Below, piece after piece: positions 6,159 to 27,624 of a stretch of DNA of 64,000 bases. The stretch's first letter is position 1, and each line of letters starts with the position of its first letter. The translations under genes and the position numbers were made by a program. The notes below the pieces were generated by a model. It searched no databases. It was not told where the DNA came from and was given only the letters and a program-made list of their open reading frames with translations. This DNA comes from a bacterium (GTDB lineage: Bacteria; UBA8248): positions 96,001-160,000 of the forward strand of contig CBDATS010000002.1 of the NCBI GenBank assembly GCA_965200245.1, given 5' to 3'.

Positions 6159-7154
6159 ATGAAAGCGATTACAATCCAGGGAGACGCCGGAATCGAGGGA
6201 TTGGTCTACGGCGAAGTCCCGACACCCGAGCCGGGTGAGGGCGAGGTTCTGGTCCGGCTCCTAGCTTCGGGCATCAACCACATCGACGTCTACCAGTGCA
6301 CCCCCGACATGGTCCGCCACGAAAACCCCCACACCATGGGGGCGGACGGCGCTGGCGTAGTATACAAGGCAGGATCGGGCGTGCGCCTGGAACAAGGTGC
6401 CAAGGTGGTCGTCGATCCCAATCTGAGTGACCCCACCGAGCCGGGCTACGGCATCGTGGGCGCGCACTGCCAGGGTACACACGCGGAGTTCATCGTCTTG
6501 CCGGAAAAAAATTTCTTTCCCATGCCAGGACACCTGACGTTCGAGGAAGCGGCGGCACTCCCCCTCGCACTTTGCACGGCCTATCGACAGCTCATCAGCC
6601 GCGCACGTCTTGCAGCGGGCGAGAGCGTGCTCATCCATGGTGTGGGCGGTGGCGTCATGCTCTACTGCCTGCAACTCGCCGTACAGGCGGGCGCATTCAC
6701 AATTGTTACTTCATCGAGCGGTGAGAAACTCGAAACCGCCAAATCCTTCGGCGCGGATGTGTGCATCGACTACAAGACGCAGGACGTCACCCAGGCCGTG
6801 ATGGACGCCACCGATGGCCGGGGGGCCGACGTGGTGGTGGACAACGTGGGCGCGCCCACTTTCGCGCTTAGTGCCAGGTGCGTCGCACTCAACGGACGCA
6901 TCTCCATCGTGGGCGGAGCGGCGCATCACGTGATTCCGGAAGTGAACCTGCGCGATCTCTACTTCAAACAGGTCGACATTCACACTTCCACTATGGCGAC
7001 TCCCGAAGAATTCAGCGCGGCGATGAGCCTCGCCGCCGAGGGCAAAGTGAAGGCCCACATCGACTCCACCTATCCACTTTCGCGTTTCCGCGAAGCCATA
7101 GAACGCGTGGCGAAAGGCCTTCAATTCGGAAAGGTTGTGATAACGAGAGAGTAG
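6159..7154 (+). CDS. MDR-superfamily (zinc-binding/quinone oxidoreductase-like) dehydrogenase
   Basis: GINHID, GADGAG, VLIHGVGGGV, GADVVVDNVG, C-terminal QFGKVVI. Confidence 0.9.
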   Translation: MKAITIQGDAGIEGLVYGEVPTPEPGEGEVLVRLLASGINHIDVYQCTPDMVRHENPHTMGADGAGVVYKAGSGVRLEQGAKVVVDPNLSDPTEPGYGIVGAHCQGTHAEFIVLPEKNFFPMPGHLTFEEAAALPLALCTAYRQLISRARLAAGESVLIHGVGGGVMLYCLQLAVQAGAFTIVTSSSGEKLETAKSFGADVCIDYKTQDVTQAVMDATDGRGADVVVDNVGAPTFALSARCVALNGRISIVGGAAHHVIPEVNLRDLYFKQVDIHTSTMATPEEFSAAMSLAAEGKVKAHIDSTYPLSRFREAIERVAKGLQFGKVVITRE

Positions 7155-7218
7155 CAACGATGCACCTGTGCCTCCCATCACCAGGCAGACAATTCATCTT
7201 TGGAGAAAACACAAAAAC

Positions 7219-8367
7219 ATGAAAAGGCACCTCGCAAAGACCGTCGCCGCTACCGCAGGCGGAGAACGCGCCAACCACATGACAGCCAGGAAACCACCGG
7301 GTCTGGTGCCGCTCGATTCGGGAACGCCCAATTTCCCCACTCCCGAACACATCAGAGAAGCCGGCAAGGAAGCACTCGACCAGGGCCTCACCGGCTATGC
7401 CCCCGGTCAGGGAGACCCCGAATTCCTCGAAGCCGTGTGCGAGCACGTCGAGCGCGAGGCAAAAGCGAACTATACGCCCCGGTCCGTCATCGCAACGAAC
7501 GGGGCAAGTTCGGGCATCTATGCCGTCATGACGACTTTGCTCGACCCGGGCGATGAGACCATCCTCATGGACCCCACGTTTTCACTCTACGCCCATGTCG
7601 CCCTGCAATTGGGAGCCGTTCCCGTCTCCGTGCCACACGACGCGGATTATCAGATTGACGCAGAGGCAGTGCGCCGCGCCATCACCCCGCGCACGCGCCT
7701 CATTCTCGTCAACAACCCGAACAACCCCACCGGCGTGGTCTACCGGGGTGAATATCTGGCGGCTCTCGCCGAACTCGCCGCCGAACACGACCTCATGCTC
7801 GTATCGGATGAGGCCTATGCGAAAATCCTGCAACCAGGCTTCGAACACGTGCCCCTGCTCTCGTTCACCGAACACAAGGAACGGCTCATCCTGCTCGACA
7901 CCTTCTCCAAGACCTATTCGATGACCGGCTGGCGTCTCGGCTACATGGTCCTGCCCGAGGACCTGGCCCAGCCCATGTTCAGCGTTCACCGTTCCATCAA
8001 CGGGCCGATCAACACCTTCGTCCAGCGTGCGGGTGCGACTGCACTCAGGGGTTCCCAGGAGTGCGTGGAGGACTTCGGGCGTGAATACCACAAGCGGGGC
8101 CGCCTCATGCACGAGATGACCCAGGCCATTCCAGGTCTCATTCCCATCGAGCCCCAGGGCGGTTTCTACCAATGCTGCCGGTATGAATACCCGATTCCCT
8201 CAAGCGAGGTCCGAAAGCGCGTCTGGGAGGCCGGGGCGGCGATTCGCAGCGGTTCCGAATTCGGCGCTTCGGGCGAGAACCACTTGCGCTTCACCTATTC
8301 GGTAGATGAAGAAGTCATCGAAAAGGGTATGAAGATCGTGGGCGAGGTGTTCCGCCACCTGGGCTGA
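7219..8367 (+). CDS. PLP-dependent aminotransferase class I/II (aspartate aminotransferase-like)
   Basis: GTPNFPTP, NNPNNPTG, SDEAY, TFSKTYSMTGWRLGY (PLP lysine). Confidence 0.92.
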   Translation: MKRHLAKTVAATAGGERANHMTARKPPGLVPLDSGTPNFPTPEHIREAGKEALDQGLTGYAPGQGDPEFLEAVCEHVEREAKANYTPRSVIATNGASSGIYAVMTTLLDPGDETILMDPTFSLYAHVALQLGAVPVSVPHDADYQIDAEAVRRAITPRTRLILVNNPNNPTGVVYRGEYLAALAELAAEHDLMLVSDEAYAKILQPGFEHVPLLSFTEHKERLILLDTFSKTYSMTGWRLGYMVLPEDLAQPMFSVHRSINGPINTFVQRAGATALRGSQECVEDFGREYHKRGRLMHEMTQAIPGLIPIEPQGGFYQCCRYEYPIPSSEVRKRVWEAGAAIRSGSEFGASGENHLRFTYSVDEEVIEKGMKIVGEVFRHLG

Positions 8368-22946: not shown

Positions 22947-23399
22947 CTAGATGCTCACCTGGAATTTCGGCAGGCGTACACCCGGACCGGTCGGAGACGC
23001 GCTTAATTCCTCGAGTGTGGTTTCGCGCAGTGTCTTGTCGATGGCGTTCTCAAGTTTCTTCCACAAAATGCGGCTCCCGCACAAGGGGATGTTCGGGCAC
23101 GGCACCGAGGGAGGTTCATCGCCACAATTGACGGGCTGAATCGTCTCTCCCACGGCGGAGAGAACGTCATGCATATTGATCTCTGGGGGCGGCAGGGCGA
23201 GGATGTAGCCGCCTCCCGGCCCCCGTGTGCTGCTTACCAGAGAAGCCCTGCGCATCTTTACGAACAATTGCTCCAGATAGTGCTGGCTGATTGCAAGTTT
23301 GCCGGCTATCTGCGGCAGGGGAACGGGGTGCGTTTGCGAATGCCGAGCCAGTTCAATCATGGCAAGCACGGCGTAGCGGCCCTTGGTGGATATCTTCAT
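22947..23399 (-). CDS. Rrf2-family transcriptional regulator, IscR-like with three Cys
   Basis: MKISTKGRYA, YLEQLF, STRGPGGGY, C-x8-C-x5-C (CGDEPPSVPCPNIPLC). Confidence 0.9.
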   Translation of the reverse strand: MKISTKGRYAVLAMIELARHSQTHPVPLPQIAGKLAISQHYLEQLFVKMRRASLVSSTRGPGGGYILALPPPEINMHDVLSAVGETIQPVNCGDEPPSVPCPNIPLCGSRILWKKLENAIDKTLRETTLEELSASPTGPGVRLPKFQVSI

Positions 23400-23433
23400 C
23401 GTTGGCATCCTCTCATTGGGCGTCCGGGTCTCA

Positions 23434-24171
23434 TTACTGAACGAACGCTGCACGCTTTACGGGAATTCCGGTTGCGCGCTTCCTTGCGAGTGCGCAGACC
23501 GGACAATCCGGATCCTGGACGACATGCACACCACCCAAGGAGTTGTTCCAGAATTCGGCTGTCATCAGCTTGTTCAACCAGGCGGGTGTGAGACCCCTGA
23601 GAACCCGGAGAGCGTCAGCGGCCTGCGCCATCCCCACGAAACCGGCTACCGCTCCGAAAACACCCGCATCCCCGCAATCGAGACCACGTGCGTCCGCACC
23701 CTCCTCGCCCACCAGACAGCGCAGGCAAGCACTCTCGCCGGGCAGAATCGTCATCACCTGGCCGAAAAAACGCAAGACGCCTCCCATAACCCATGGCTTG
23801 CCCGTTGCGGCGCAGGCATGGTTCAGGGCGAACTTGGCAGCCAGGTTATCGCTTCCATCGATCACAACATCATATGGTGCGATGATGCGGGCGGCGTTCT
23901 CGCGCGTGATCCTTTGGGGAATCTTGTCCACCCCAACCTCGGCGGATAGCCTGAATATGGAATCGGCGCCGGAGTCCACTTTCAATCGGCCGACATCTTC
24001 TGTTCGGTGGAGAATCTGGCGCGCGAGGTTATCGAGAGTCACGACGTCGTGGTCCGCAAGCCCAATGCGCCCCACTCCTGATGCCGCCAGGGTAAGCGCG
24101 GCAGGACAGCCCAAACCCCCGACTCCGACGATGAGGGCAGATGAACTATCGAGAGTTTTTTCATCTCTCAC
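23434..24171 (-). CDS. MoeB/ThiF-family adenylyltransferase (catalytic motifs intact, lacks N-terminal RYSR segment and rhodanese)
   Basis: GVGGLG, DHD, NLARQ, GRLK, DGSDN, CLRC, DCGDAG, CPVC; GTG start overlaps the JAB gene stop (GTGA). Confidence 0.9.
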   Translation of the reverse strand: MRDEKTLDSSSALIVGVGGLGCPAALTLAASGVGRIGLADHDVVTLDNLARQILHRTEDVGRLKVDSGADSIFRLSAEVGVDKIPQRITRENAARIIAPYDVVIDGSDNLAAKFALNHACAATGKPWVMGGVLRFFGQVMTILPGESACLRCLVGEEGADARGLDCGDAGVFGAVAGFVGMAQAADALRVLRGLTPAWLNKLMTAEFWNNSLGGVHVVQDPDCPVCALARKRATGIPVKRAAFVQ

Positions 24172-24662
24172 GCACCCGCCTCCTCATATATCTCAAGTTC
24201 GCTTTCGATGAACGTCTTTTGCCCCGCGTTCCAGGAGTAAACCTTCTGACCAAGCACCACGCCCTCACGCACACTCATGACGATGTGCTCTGCATCCGGG
24301 AACGCGGGAATGTCCCCGAAAGGAACCGCCGCGTCCTCGTCTTCTTGTGAAAAATAGGCGTCCTCGTCCGGGTGGCTGTGAAAAATGCCGCGAACCACCT
24401 CGCCCGCCTCCTCGGCACGCCTCACGATGCGCTCGAACTCAAAGGGGTCGATGAGAAAAGCGCGCCGCGCCGTACGGGGGTAGAATTCCGGGTCCTTCGC
24501 GTGCATCTCGTTCTGGACGTTCCTGCACGGCAAAAGCTGGAGCGCCTCTGTTTTGTGCCCTTTCGCAGACGGCGGCCCGATAATCAGCCCGCAACACTCA
24601 TCGGGATATGTCTCGCGTGCGTGGCGGTGCATCAGTTCCACCTGTTCACGGTTCAGACGCAA
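24168..24662 (-). CDS. JAB/MPN (M67) metalloprotease, Mec-like
   Basis: YPDECCG and IFHSHPDEDAYFSQED (JAMM E...HSH-x7-S-x2-D). Confidence 0.92.
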   Translation of the reverse strand: MRLNREQVELMHRHARETYPDECCGLIIGPPSAKGHKTEALQLLPCRNVQNEMHAKDPEFYPRTARRAFLIDPFEFERIVRRAEEAGEVVRGIFHSHPDEDAYFSQEDEDAAVPFGDIPAFPDAEHIVMSVREGVVLGQKVYSWNAGQKTFIESELEIYEEAGA

Positions 24663-24674
24663 CTCGATACTCCC

Positions 24675-25613
24675 TTAACGTGCTTCGCTCAGGTACCTGT
24701 CCCCACCGTCGGGGAACAAGGTGACGATCACACCCTTGCCAATTCGCTTCGCCACTTCGCGCACGCCCACGAGTGCGGCACCCGCCGAGTGGCCGATGAA
24801 GAGTCCCTCTTCCCTGACGATACGCTCGGCGAGATCGTAGCTCTCCTCGGTACCCGCCAGTATCAGGTGTTCGTGGACACTCTCATCATAAATTCCCGGT
24901 CGAATGGCCGTGGGAATATGCTTCATGCCTTCCAGGCCGTGAAACGACTCTGCCGGCATGACCGCATGCACCACGACATCCGGCTTCCTCGCCTTGAGGC
25001 CACGTCCCGTGCCTACAAGCGTTCCCGTAGTGCCAAGACCAGCGACGAAATGATCGACGCGCCCACCGGTCTGATCCAGAATCTCGATCGCCGTCGTCTC
25101 GACGTGGGCGAGAGGGTTGGCGGGATTGTCGTATTGACAAGGCAGAAAATATTTCTCCGGCTCCTCGCCATGCATCTTTGCAGCGAGACGCTGCGCGCCG
25201 TCCGATCCTTCCAGGGGATCGGAAAAAACGATGTCGGCCCCGTAGCCCTTGAGCGTCGCCTTGCGCTCGTCACTCGCATTCGCAGGCAGGACAAGGCGCA
25301 CGGGAATCCCGAGCGCTGCTCCAATCATGGCGTAGGCGATGCCCGTGTTCCCGCTCGTGGAATCGAGCAGAACCTTGCCGGGGCGCAACTGTCCCGTTTC
25401 CAGACCGTCTTTCACCATGAAGAGCGCCGGCCTGTCCTTCACCGAGCCGCCCGGGTTGAACCATTCCGCCTTGGCGTAGACTTTCACATCGGGATATTCA
25501 CTCTCGAACAACTTGATCTTGAGCAGCGGAGTGTTGCCGATGCATTTGATGATTGGGGAATCCTCCAGATTCCGGAACGCGCTCGCGGGATTTTCCACCG
25601 TCGATTCGACCAT
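24675..25613 (-). CDS. cysM: Cysteine synthase B-like PLP enzyme
   Basis: IGNTPL, NPGGSVKDR, TSGNTG, QYDNPAN, GLGTTGT, HGLEGMK, DGGDRYLS. Confidence 0.85.
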   Translation of the reverse strand: MVESTVENPASAFRNLEDSPIIKCIGNTPLLKIKLFESEYPDVKVYAKAEWFNPGGSVKDRPALFMVKDGLETGQLRPGKVLLDSTSGNTGIAYAMIGAALGIPVRLVLPANASDERKATLKGYGADIVFSDPLEGSDGAQRLAAKMHGEEPEKYFLPCQYDNPANPLAHVETTAIEILDQTGGRVDHFVAGLGTTGTLVGTGRGLKARKPDVVVHAVMPAESFHGLEGMKHIPTAIRPGIYDESVHEHLILAGTEESYDLAERIVREEGLFIGHSAGAALVGVREVAKRIGKGVIVTLFPDGGDRYLSEAR

Positions 25614-25646
25614 CGATATGGCCCTCGCACTTTGCTCCTGAAAACT

Positions 25647-26297
25647 TCAGGAAAGGTTCGCACGCGCTTCCAGCAAGCCGTGCGAAAAATCGAAACGGGC
25701 CTGAGCGGTCGACCCCACCGTATCCTCAGCATCCAGCAGGCGACGCAGGACCTTCGCAGCCATCCATGCACCCATCGCCCCTTGTGTCGCCACGTTGTGC
25801 GCTCCCCCGTCGCGAGGGGCTCCGCACAATTCCCCCATAGATCCGGTATCCTCTGCGACCTCACCCGTCTCGCCCCGGGAGACGCCCACAAGCGTAATGT
25901 TCGCCGAAGCCGCGAGCCTCTCGAAATCCGCGGACATCCCTTTGCCCAACCAGAGGAGAGCTTCGAAAGCATCTCCCGCTTCCTCGACTGTTCGAAAGGA
26001 AACCAGTCCGGCATCCGGATTGAGACTCCATATGCCATCTTCCAGAGAACAACCCAGAAAGGCGGTGAGTGGAAGGTTTCTTCCAGGTTCGCCTTTCTCG
26101 TTCATCGCAAGCCGACCGATGCGGCCCACTCCTGCAGCGGCCAGATAGATCAGGGCCACAGACGCAGCGTTATCCTCATCTTCCGAATAGGCGACCAGTA
26201 CAGAAGAAGTCAGTAATCGTTCCTGCCCGGCTCCTCCGACACCCGGGAGCAGAACGTGTCGGCTGTAGCGCTGAATCTGCTCTTCGCTCAAGCCCAA
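25647..26297 (-). CDS. Degenerate ThiF/MoeB-like protein (predicted catalytically inactive)
   Basis: Starts LGLSEEQIQRYSRHVLLPGVGGAGQERL, keeps YLAAAGVGRIG and SLNPD, but has no GxGxxG, NLxRQ or CxxC; TTG start at 26297 after AAGGAG. Confidence 0.75.
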   Translation of the reverse strand: MGLSEEQIQRYSRHVLLPGVGGAGQERLLTSSVLVAYSEDEDNAASVALIYLAAAGVGRIGRLAMNEKGEPGRNLPLTAFLGCSLEDGIWSLNPDAGLVSFRTVEEAGDAFEALLWLGKGMSADFERLAASANITLVGVSRGETGEVAEDTGSMGELCGAPRDGGAHNVATQGAMGAWMAAKVLRRLLDAEDTVGSTAQARFDFSHGLLEARANLS

Positions 26298-26331
26298 TGG
26301 GCGATTCTCCTTCCTGTGGTTTTGCGGACGT

Positions 26332-26610
26332 TTAGCGACCACCCGCAATGGCCGGTACAATGGAGACCTCGTCCTGGTCGCTTACCGCAGTTCCCTCGCC
26401 CTGCAGGAACCGGATGTCCTCCTGGTTCACGTAAATGTTCACGAAACGGCGCAGCTTGCCTTCTTCGTCATAGAGGCGCTGGCCAATGCCCGTGAACTGG
26501 CTTTCGAGGTTCGCGAGCACTTCCTTCACGTCTGCGCCCTCGATCTCTACAGCGTCCTGCTGCTGGGTGAATTCTTGCAAGGGTGTGGGAATAAGGACTG
26601 TTACCGCCAT
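26332..26610 (-). CDS. MoaD/ThiS/CysO-family ubiquitin-like sulfur carrier, C-terminus GG-R
   Basis: [37 protein letters not shown]. Confidence 0.92.
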
Positions 26611-26627
26611 ATCTCTCTCCTGATCTG

Positions 26628-26646
26628 AAAACCCCGCCTTTCGGGG
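26628..26646 (-). terminator. Possible weak intrinsic terminator between cysK and sulfur carrier gene
   Basis: Minus strand CCCCG-aaagg-CGGGG-TTTT. Confidence 0.45.
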
Positions 26647-26664
26647 ATGCCGAAAATAGAATTT

Positions 26665-27624
26665 CTAACGAAAATGCTGTTCCAGACTATAATACCTCTC
26701 CCAGCCGTCGGGAATGACGACCACCACATTTTCCTCAGGACTCATCCGACGCGCAATCTGCAGGGCAGTGGAAACCGCTGCGCCCGCCGAAATGCCGACA
26801 GCCATGCCCTCCTCGCGGCCCAGGGCCTTGCACATGTCGTATGCGTCTGAATCGTTTACCGGCACGACCTCATCGATGATCGCGCGGTTCAGTACCGCAG
26901 GGACGAAACCCGCACCGATACCCTGAATCTGGTGCGGTCCCGGCTCGCCGCCCGAGAGAACTGCGGACGCGGCGGGCTCGACGCCGACGATCAGGGTTTC
27001 CGGTTTCTTTTCTTTCAGGACCTCTCCCACGCCCGTAATAGTGCCTCCCGTCCCCACACCCGCCACGAAGGCGTCCACCGGCTCCGCGCCCATGTCGCGC
27101 AATATCTCGCGCGCCGTGGTTCTGCGGTGAATCTCCGGGTTGGCCAGATTGTTGAACTGCTGCGGCATGAAATAGTCCGGGTTCTCCTCCAGAATGGTTT
27201 CGGCCATCACGAGGGAGCCGTACATTCCGCCCTCGCTTGAACTGAATACCACCTCAGCCCCATAGCCCGTGAGCAGGGAATTCCGCTCATGACTCATGCT
27301 ATTGCTAAGCACAATGATCGTCCTGTAGCCGCGAATCGCACCGATGAGTGCCAGGCCTATCCCCGTATTGCCGCTCGTGGGTTCGATGATCGTCCCGCCG
27401 GGTTTCAGGAGGCCGCGCCGCTCTCCGTCGAGCACCATGCTGAGCGCAATGCGATCCTTCACACTGCCGCCGGGGTTGTATTGCTCAAGTTTCGCGAACA
27501 CGCGCGCACCAGATGTGTCGGGCAAACGCTGCAACTGGACGAGGCTCGTGCTCCCGATGCGATCGATGAGCGAGGGAAGTGCCCTCAGAATCTGGGGCGG
27601 ACGGCCCCGCGTACCCAATGCCAT
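26665..27624 (-). CDS. cysK: Cysteine synthase A
   Basis: NPGGSVKDR, IEPTSGNTG, PQQFNNLANP, GVGTGGT, GPHQIQGIGAGF. Confidence 0.9.
   Translation of the reverse strand: MALGTRGRPPQILRALPSLIDRIGSTSLVQLQRLPDTSGARVFAKLEQYNPGGSVKDRIALSMVLDGERRGLLKPGGTIIEPTSGNTGIGLALIGAIRGYRTIIVLSNSMSHERNSLLTGYGAEVVFSSSEGGMYGSLVMAETILEENPDYFMPQQFNNLANPEIHRRTTAREILRDMGAEPVDAFVAGVGTGGTITGVGEVLKEKKPETLIVGVEPAASAVLSGGEPGPHQIQGIGAGFVPAVLNRAIIDEVVPVNDSDAYDMCKALGREEGMAVGISAGAAVSTALQIARRMSPEENVVVVIPDGWERYYSLEQHFR

Follow-up and report, generated by a model that had tools for sequence, protein, structure and literature searches.

Two genes of a cysteine synthesis operon in a Nitrospinota bacterium encode ThiF-fold proteins that probably work together as an inactive-plus-active activating enzyme (E1) for the sulfur carrier CysO. 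The operon occupies positions 22947-27624 on the minus strand of the window, that is, the whole stretch of 64,000 nucleotides analyzed here. Its seven tightly packed genes, with intergenic gaps of 12-54 bases, follow the order cysK-cysO-dead MoeB-cysM-JAMM-short MoeB-rrf2. The dead copy (25647..26297, minus strand; 216 amino acids) was classified as a catalytically dead MoeB/ThiF paralogue from its sequence motifs, family scores, fold and orthologues, and the short MoeB (23434..24171, minus strand; 245 amino acids) as an active-type MoeB/ThiF adenylyltransferase without an arginine-finger helix at its N-terminus, based on its motifs and its Pfam ThiF match. Each of the two subunits lacks exactly what its partner keeps.

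Complementary defects in two ThiF-fold proteins

The dead copy starts with TTG, preceded by GGAGA 8 bases upstream, and its closest relatives in the protein database share its length of 216 amino acids. Reading its own sequence, which runs through the stretches MGLSEEQIQRYSRHVLLPGVGGAGQERLL, VLVAYSEDEDNAASVALIYLAAAGVGRIG and GAMGAWMAAKVLRRLL in this order, revealed none of the GxGxxG, DxD, NLxRQ and DxxDN motifs and neither of the CxxC pairs. What it retains is the arginine-finger helix (R10, Y11, S12, R13, H14), part of the Rossmann core, an NPD motif, the C-terminal helix and the tail VGSTxQARFD. Family models recognized it poorly: Pfam ThiF (PF00899) scored 12.6 bits against a cut-off of 28.1, covering residues 32-81 of the 237-residue frame, and the NCBIfam MoeB, MoeZ and ThiF models matched its first ~60 residues only (E 5.5e-12 to 1e-4), all far below their cut-offs. 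In HMMER comparisons with Uba4, ThiF and MoeB, the RYSR helix and the first Rossmann strand and helix aligned, and the position of the glycine loop was taken by an acidic stretch 3 residues longer than in these proteins. The match offsets place R13 of the dead copy at residue 14 of MoeB and residue 11 of ThiF; Arg14 and Arg11 are named as the arginine fingers of these enzymes in passages of a 2026 paper (PMC13139853). Profile alignment with hhalign laid residues 26-146 of the dead copy onto residues 5-138 of the short MoeB over 119 columns (probability 89%, E 2e-6), with GxGxxG, DxD, NLxRQ and DxxDN all substituted on the dead-copy side.

Structure prediction complemented these alignments. The AlphaFold2 monomer of the dead copy reached a mean predicted local distance difference test (pLDDT) score of 70.2 and a predicted template modeling score (pTM) of 0.72, with residues 192-216 below a pLDDT of 50. 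Foldseek matched this model to Uba4, ThiF and MoeB at a probability of 1.00 and query-normalized template modeling (TM) scores of 0.59-0.65, and to the inactive eukaryotic subunits SAE1 and APPBP1, likewise at a probability of 1.00. The model indicates that the dead copy adopts an E1-like Rossmann fold.

The short MoeB presents the converse picture. It carries GVGGLG, DHD, NLARQ, DGSDN, CLRC and CPVC and scored 209.1 bits with Pfam ThiF (cut-off 28.1), in a match that begins only at profile position 15 of 238. Alignments start at residue 24 of E. coli ThiF (E 1.4e-38) and residue 27 of E. coli MoeB (E 5e-37). Across 20 sequences, G16, G18, G21, D40, D42, N48, R51, Q52, D108, C149, C152, C223 and C226 are invariant, as is the crossover-loop cysteine C166, and the zinc site is present. 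The GTG start codon overlaps the stop codon of the JAMM gene (GTGA). Five codons before it the frame is closed by a TGA, and the stretch between the two holds no start codon; the open frame spans 249 amino acids and leaves no room for a longer protein. This upstream TGA rules out a missed start or frameshift supplying the helix. An N-terminal RYxR helix was absent from 20/20 short-MoeB orthologues, and a helix overlooked by gene calling could be dismissed for them, too, as the 20 upstream frames are Arg/Gly-rich, out-of-frame overlaps with the JAMM gene that hold no RYxR. In one relative (G035; L040:2711-3406), the nearest ATG, GTG or TTG start lies inside the glycine loop; the frame stays open further upstream through the usual SSVLI strand, and the start may lie there or be non-canonical.

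These readings bear out the description in the initial annotation of a dead copy that keeps the RYSRH helix and has lost the glycine loop, DxD, NLxRQ and the CxxC pairs, to which the loss of DxxDN is added, and of a short MoeB that holds all catalytic motifs, starts 15 residues before the glycine loop and has an in-frame stop that excludes a missed start. The pair consists of two ThiF-fold chains, only one of which has an ATP site and the other of which holds the arginine that would act in trans, as in a heterodimeric E1. No catalytic-cysteine domain, ubiquitin-fold domain or other extra domain was found in either protein, nor an E2-like gene in the operon. Judged by this domain content, the pair would work like the adenylation core of an E1 and is not a canonical E1. 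The parallel to eukaryotic E1s drawn in the initial annotation accordingly extends to the two adenylation domains, but not to the catalytic-cysteine domain, the ubiquitin-fold domain or the E2.

Conservation, joint loss and predicted pairing

We followed both genes through 50 other genomes of the phylum. A full-length orthologue of the dead copy is present in 29/50. Both genes occur together in 28/50, the short-MoeB orthologues being 52-83% identical, and neither gene in 19/50. One further genome of another family (1/50; G009) holds a diverged pair on two cut contigs: where the dead copy would stand, the gene has RYARH but no DxD or NLxRQ, and the short MoeB lacks RYxR. Two genomes (2/50) were left out at contig ends: in G022 the contig ends 1013 bases away from the dead copy, so that the missing short MoeB is uninformative, and in G040 a short-MoeB fragment stands beside rrf2 at the contig start, with cysM not assembled. 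Wherever loci were fetched with their flanks, the seven-gene order was identical (20/20), and the frame of the dead copy was intact at 210-232 amino acids in all 20 relatives, which represent several genera and reach down to 34% identity.

Losses of the two genes go together. All six pair-less operons inspected (G023, G034, G039, G037, G010 and G042) read cysK-cysO-cysM-JAMM-rrf2, and because cysM and JAMM, which separate the two genes, remain in place, two separate deletions are required each time. Translation of the intergenic spacers uncovered relics in 4 of these 6 operons (L059:5495-5675, L060:7540-7718, L149:1141-1500 and L150:2935-3148), namely dead-copy tails of 25 residues in G023 and 22 residues in G034, a dead-copy relic of 75 residues in G037, and 42 residues of the short-MoeB C-terminus in G010. 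The survival of such relics demonstrates loss as opposed to gain. In G037, what remains looks like an N-terminal IQRSSRH piece fused to the C-terminal tail, the outcome expected of an internal deletion. On a tree of CysK, CysM and Mec (28 rows, quick IQ-TREE search), the distribution of the pair calls for 5 changes, with well-supported branches forcing at least 3 of them, and in every event both genes changed in the same way. All genomes that lost the pair still have a full-length MoeB, equipped with an RYSR helix of its own; this housekeeping enzyme presumably serves CysO after the loss.

Selection was assessed by the ratio of nonsynonymous to synonymous substitution rates (dN/dS), taken as the median over 91 pairs of closer relatives. 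The dead copy evolves under purifying selection, with a median dN/dS of 0.33 compared to 0.205 for the short MoeB, 0.126 for JAMM, 0.093 for CysM, 0.082 for CysK and 0.081 for CysO. Within the dead copy, constraint is strongest on the arginine-finger segment: the N-terminal 61 residues reach 0.14, the middle 0.44 and the C-terminal 50 residues 0.29. Invariant or near-invariant positions of the helix are Q7, R10, Y11, S12, R13, H14, L16, L17 and P18, with R13 being an arginine in 19/21 sequences, and further conserved blocks comprise GGxGQxRLL, YLAAAGVGRIGW, NPD, the C-terminal helix and the tail. The initial annotation had named a degenerate paralogue that is not conserved in relatives as the outcome that would speak against a pair; the intact frames and the dN/dS of 0.33 show the opposite.

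Next to these observations stands a prediction of the complex, run for the two proteins, each entered as an alignment, together with adenosine triphosphate (ATP). The heterodimer obtained interaction scores (ipSAE) of 0.92, 0.91 and 0.92, compared to 0.00 for the best of three controls; in the calibration of this score, the mark was reached by 58/80 solved complexes and 2/110 mismatched pairs. The runs agreed in at least 93% of contacts, and the partner pLDDT was at least 79. On the dead-copy side, the confidently predicted interface involves helix residues 6, 9-14 and 16-20 as well as residues 198-213, and conserved columns are enriched there (22/58 versus 31/158; one-sided Fisher test, p = 0.006). 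The arginine segment falls within the predicted interface, and the pair can be fitted to the MoeB/ThiF dimer geometry, although the score is no proof of binding.

A wider family of dead MoeB-like proteins

Searching the dead-copy profile against 1.84 billion representatives returned eight proteins at E up to 1e-30, followed by many proteins of 200-260 amino acids with an intact QIERYSRQ helix and degenerate ATP motifs. Among the best 150 matches, 84 are at least 190 amino acids long, and a simple motif script classed 50 of these 84 as RYxR-positive, NLxRQ-negative and DxxDN-negative. An alignment of 15 family members (A3) shows R10, Y11 and R13 invariant in 15/15, along with two CxxC pairs. 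Searching again with A3 added another 106 top clusters, of which the script classed 96 as degenerate. When the alignment of Nitrospinota dead copies (A1) was compared with A3 by hhalign, it matched over 203 columns (probability 100%, E 6.9e-44). Nitrospinota dead copies have no CxxC, whereas most other family members keep two CxxC pairs, and by these sequence criteria the former are zinc-site-less members of the wider dead family. As the dead copy is far closer to A3 (100%, E 7e-44) than to the short MoeB (89%, E 2e-6), it is probably not a recent copy of the latter. A recent local duplication of the short MoeB is for this reason not favored, and the sub-functionalization of two local genes suggested in the initial annotation was probably not a recent event.

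The few source names among family members are Binatia, 'Deltaproteobacteria' and metagenome-assembled genomes of Thermodesulfobacteriota, and most sequences stem from metagenomes. Database labels read 'ThiF family adenylyltransferase', 'molybdopterin-synthase adenylyltransferase' or 'hypothetical protein', and no curated NCBIfam or Pfam model scored above its cut-off on these proteins, except for the generic PF00899 on some. Because the family is labeled as an adenylyltransferase, pathway reconstructions count an enzyme that does not bind ATP. A large set of dead proteins (P0128-P0375, ~200-260 amino acids) without NLxRQ or DxxDN is often encoded just downstream of cysM.

Metagenome loci gave further views of the gene neighborhood. 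The script found a degenerate open reading frame (ORF) in 5/80 loci, and L154 and L156 were added by eye and by profile, resulting in seven dead-family loci (L153, L154, L156, L163, L164, L188 and L212). In 4/7 of them (L153, L156, L164 and L188) the dead gene directly follows a cysM-like gene, with an ORF for a NIL-domain protein in between in L153. The latter locus reads active ThiF, ThiS, PALP enzyme, NIL protein and dead ThiF with helix, and its active ThiF matches the profile from position 13 and has no RYxRQ helix. L153, the sole locus with enough upstream sequence, is by its sequence a second instance of the same complementarity. A radical-SAM-like ORF with weak Pfam matches follows the dead gene in L153, where the NIL-domain protein precedes it (L153:5678-5989 and 7034-7972 for these neighbors), and in L188 (L188:1295-2923), where a sulfate symporter and ATP sulfurylase come next. 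The surroundings in both loci hint at a larger sulfur-assimilation module around the dead gene.

Matches to dead-copy residues 1-114 in Nitrospira and other genomes, at first candidates for further dead copies, turned out to be normal full-length MoeBs in 68/68 loci. Searching the L153 protein against 401 genomes of the phylum of G052 produced 5 matches at E up to 1e-25, which were taken as normal MoeBs by length and identity (frames of 272-284 amino acids, 36-41% identity), and in a search of five genomes with the A3 profile the E-value did not separate dead from normal MoeBs.

From these data we tentatively propose, with more reservation than for the Nitrospinota pair itself, that two-gene E1s for sulfur carriers may form a widespread, unnamed class, in which a dead MoeB holding the arginine finger would pair obligately with a truncated active MoeB. 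Such a class might extend across Nitrospinota, Binatia-like bacteria and further uncultured lineages, in operons of the CysO/CysM type.

Proposed mechanism, alternatives and known systems

The remaining operon genes place the pair in sulfur metabolism. On the minus strand, a cysK-like gene (26665..27624) encodes a cysteine synthase A of 319 amino acids (Pfam PALP 250.5 bits; NCBIfam TIGR01139 cysK 395.1 bits, cut-off 350.95), followed by a CysO-type sulfur carrier of the ThiS/MoaD fold with 92 amino acids and the C-terminus AIAGG-R (26332..26610; Pfam ThiS 64.6 bits). Beyond the dead copy come a cysM-like, pyridoxal phosphate (PLP)-dependent cysteine synthase of 312 amino acids (24675..25613; Pfam PALP 216.8 bits), which reaches 337.8 bits with the NCBIfam cysM equivalog TIGR01138 and so stays under the cut-off of 394.2, and a Mec-like JAMM/Prok-JAB metalloprotease of 164 amino acids (24168..24662; Pfam Prok-JAB 69.4 bits). 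The last gene (22947..23453), which overlaps the 3' end of the short MoeB gene, encodes an Rrf2-family (IscR/CymR-like) regulator of 168 amino acids (Pfam Rrf2 119.3 bits; NCBIfam rrf2_super 121 bits, cut-off 73.3). This single operon combines a ThiS-fold carrier (C-terminal GG) with a PLP cysteine synthase and a JAMM protease and is of the CysO/CysM/Mec type for protein-thiocarboxylate cysteine synthesis, as in mycobacteria. CysO ends in GG plus 1-2 extra residues in 20/21 orthologues and in GG plus 11 in one (L050); in the window and L034-L053, the residues after GG are R, L, G, LY or VG, apart from the 11 in L050. Since extra residues always follow GG, CysO needs trimming before adenylation, presumably by the JAMM protease of the operon. 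Pfam and NCBIfam scans detected no rhodanese domain in either ThiF-fold protein of the operon, which distinguishes them from a rhodanese-fused, MoeZ-type activating enzyme. Elsewhere, the genome encodes a separate full-length rhodanese-MoeB, with an N-terminal rhodanese and its own arginine-finger helix, which makes the operon pair a dedicated addition. The same genome has a third ThiF-family gene (L003:979-2376, contig C4), the 465-residue product of which, with a long N-terminal extension before its E1 domain and an incomplete ThiF match (95.8 bits over profile positions 3-205), might be a JAB-E1 or a defense-type E1.

In the mechanism we propose, the activating enzyme would be split between the two ThiF-fold proteins in a 1:1 complex. 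The short MoeB would provide the sole site for ATP and carrier adenylation, together with the zinc site and the crossover-loop C166. The dead copy would stand in for the second subunit of the usual MoeB homodimer, supplying what the short MoeB is missing, an N-terminal helix that bears the arginine finger (R13), and its C-terminal tail would join the interface. Activation would begin with removal of the residue(s) after the CysO Gly-Gly by the JAMM protease, after which the heterodimer would adenylate CysO at its single active site. Sulfur would then come from a persulfide donor outside the pair, as neither subunit has a rhodanese domain. CysM would join the resulting thiocarboxylate to what is presumably activated serine, and the JAMM protease would finally free the cysteine.

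Several points weigh against this heterodimer. The arginine fingers MoeB Arg14 and ThiF Arg11 are stated to be non-essential in the same 2026 paper, as far as its accessible text goes (PMC13139853), so the short MoeB might work without a partner, and R13 itself is replaced by histidine in 2/21 orthologues, the close relatives L044 and L053. The heterodimer may owe its score to a resemblance to the MoeB and ThiF homodimers of known structure. The 28/19 split between genomes with both genes and with neither overstates the number of events, as kin are not independent. The dead copy is the fastest-evolving gene of the operon, showing 57-64% identity in 11/12 loci where its neighbors reach 78-95%, and the dead-family locus L212 contains neither ThiF nor cysM within 6 kb. 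Contigs from four RNA libraries match parts of the dead-copy and short-MoeB genes at 99% identity or more and bridge the cysO/dead-copy, dead-copy/cysM and JAMM/short-MoeB junctions, but as they stem from one study with possible DNA carry-over, they cannot show transcription and were given no weight. With the finger reported as non-essential and histidine at R13 in two orthologues, neither the 'obligate' nature of the pairing put forward in the initial annotation nor an essential role of the arginine is supported, while the pairing itself, acting on the adjacent carrier, has gained support from synteny, co-occurrence, repeated joint loss, selection and the predicted interface. By analogy with yeast Tcd1-Tcd2 (see below), the dead subunit may be needed chiefly for structure and less for donating its arginine, a view that fits the two orthologues with histidine.

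The non-essential finger and the two orthologues with histidine also feed a rather unlikely alternative, in which the short MoeB is a self-sufficient homodimeric adenylyltransferase like TcdA, which is described in passages of the same paper as lacking the finger (PMC13139853), and the dead copy has another job in the pathway, either as a CysO- or CysM-binding adaptor or as a sulfur-donor docking subunit. In its favor are the position of wider-family members directly after cysM in 4/7 loci, the absence of ThiF within 6 kb at another, and the need for some contact with a sulfur relay, given that neither protein has a rhodanese; the joint losses would then reflect only a dedicated branch that becomes dispensable once the housekeeping rhodanese-MoeB takes over. 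However, the strongest constraint on the dead copy lies on its helix (dN/dS 0.14; R10, Y11, S12 and H14 invariant), the only known role of which is to complete the ATP site and dimer interface of a partner, and R10, Y11 and R13 are invariant in all 15 aligned members of the wider family. A persulfide-carrier role of the dead copy was ruled out, as it has no invariant cysteine and the window copy does not even hold the common GWC cysteine. The high-confidence heterodimer prediction, moreover, speaks against a self-sufficient short MoeB.

It is improbable that the dead copy instead pairs with or bridges the housekeeping rhodanese-MoeB, bringing rhodanese sulfur to CysO, with the short MoeB acting separately. 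ThiF-fold proteins dimerize via a common interface, and the rhodanese that the operon lacks is found at the N-terminus of the other MoeB of the genome; yet that enzyme has its own arginine-finger helix and hence no complementary defect, and it is present in nearly all genomes, whereas the dead copy and short MoeB are gained or lost together. Most remote of all is a decaying, functionless duplicate, as might be suspected from the fastest rate in the operon and a score below Pfam recognition. Against this stand a frame intact at 210-232 amino acids in 20/20 relatives down to 34% identity, dN/dS values of 0.33 overall and 0.14 at the N-terminus, membership in a large conserved family, and the fact that true losses take the form of deletions down to short relics.

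If true, the class of two-gene E1s considered above would mean that the inactive-plus-active adenylation architecture, regarded as typical of eukaryotic E1s and of the fused BilD, also arose in primary sulfur metabolism, with its halves as separate subunits, and would provide a simple prokaryotic model for the evolution of E1 asymmetry. In textbooks, the symmetric MoeB and ThiF of bacteria are the ancestors of E1 enzymes; asymmetric inactive-plus-active pairs are known from eukaryotes, from the fused BilD of a phage-defense system and from yeast Tcd1-Tcd2. The operon pair would offer a small, tractable bacterial system for asking why E1s turn asymmetric and what role the trans arginine and the second subunit play. 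Searching open full text, we came across no bacterial MoeB/ThiF described as an inactive-plus-active enzyme split over two genes, in a search that did not cover Burroughs et al. 2009, supplements and subscription papers. In the portions available of Iyer et al. 2006, the operon type 4c of which is the same kind of operon, there is no mention of an inactive, second or heterodimeric E1, nor of paralogs (PMC1779556).

Among known systems, the mycobacterial CysO-CysM-Mec pathway shares the ThiS-like carrier, PLP cysteine synthase and JAMM protease and uses a MoeB-type activator (MoeZR), according to the sections at hand (PMC3227635). In mycobacteria, a single full-length MoeB fused to a rhodanese does the activation, its gene lying in the operon or elsewhere, whereas here two rhodanese-less ThiF-fold genes flank cysM and JAMM. 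In yeast Tcd1-Tcd2, the dehydratase for the transfer RNA (tRNA) modification ct6A, inactive Tcd1 completes the Tcd2 site with the arginine finger Arg59 and is required for Tcd2 stability and solubility, and an R59A exchange in Tcd1 cost only 26% of activity, as given in excerpts of the 2026 paper (PMC13139853). This modest loss implies that the finger in the operon pair, too, may be structural and not catalytic. Tcd1-Tcd2 resembles the predicted pair in that an inactive ThiF-family paralogue complements an active one, and differs from it in being eukaryotic, membrane-anchored and directed at a tRNA substrate. BilD of the antiviral Bil systems is a pseudo-dimer of an inactive and an active adenylation domain, with the key arginine coming from the inactive one, as far as the consulted parts describe it (PMC10557695). 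It is bacterial and built of inactive-plus-active halves, like the pairing predicted here. BilD is, however, one fused polypeptide with a CYS domain and an E2 partner that serves conjugation and defense, whereas the operon pair is made of two genes in sulfur metabolism.

The heterodimeric E1 architecture of SAE1-SAE2 for SUMO and NAE1/APPBP1-UBA3 for NEDD8, outlined in the accessible portions of two articles (PMC12355090, PMC11354881), is mirrored in the prediction of two ThiF-fold polypeptides that form a pseudo-symmetric dimer with one ATP site and an N-terminal arginine on the inactive subunit. In contrast to these eukaryotic enzymes, the operon pair has no catalytic-cysteine half-domain, ubiquitin-fold domain, E2 or conjugation, its subunits are small (216 and 245 amino acids), the active one has lost its own N-terminal helix, and the pair is predicted to yield a carrier thiocarboxylate, used in cysteine synthesis. 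The short MoeB has its fold, motifs and zinc site in common with E. coli MoeB and ThiF, and the dimer geometry is presumably shared as well; but whereas both subunits of these homodimers are active and exchange their arginines, the operon proteins each hold one half of that exchange.

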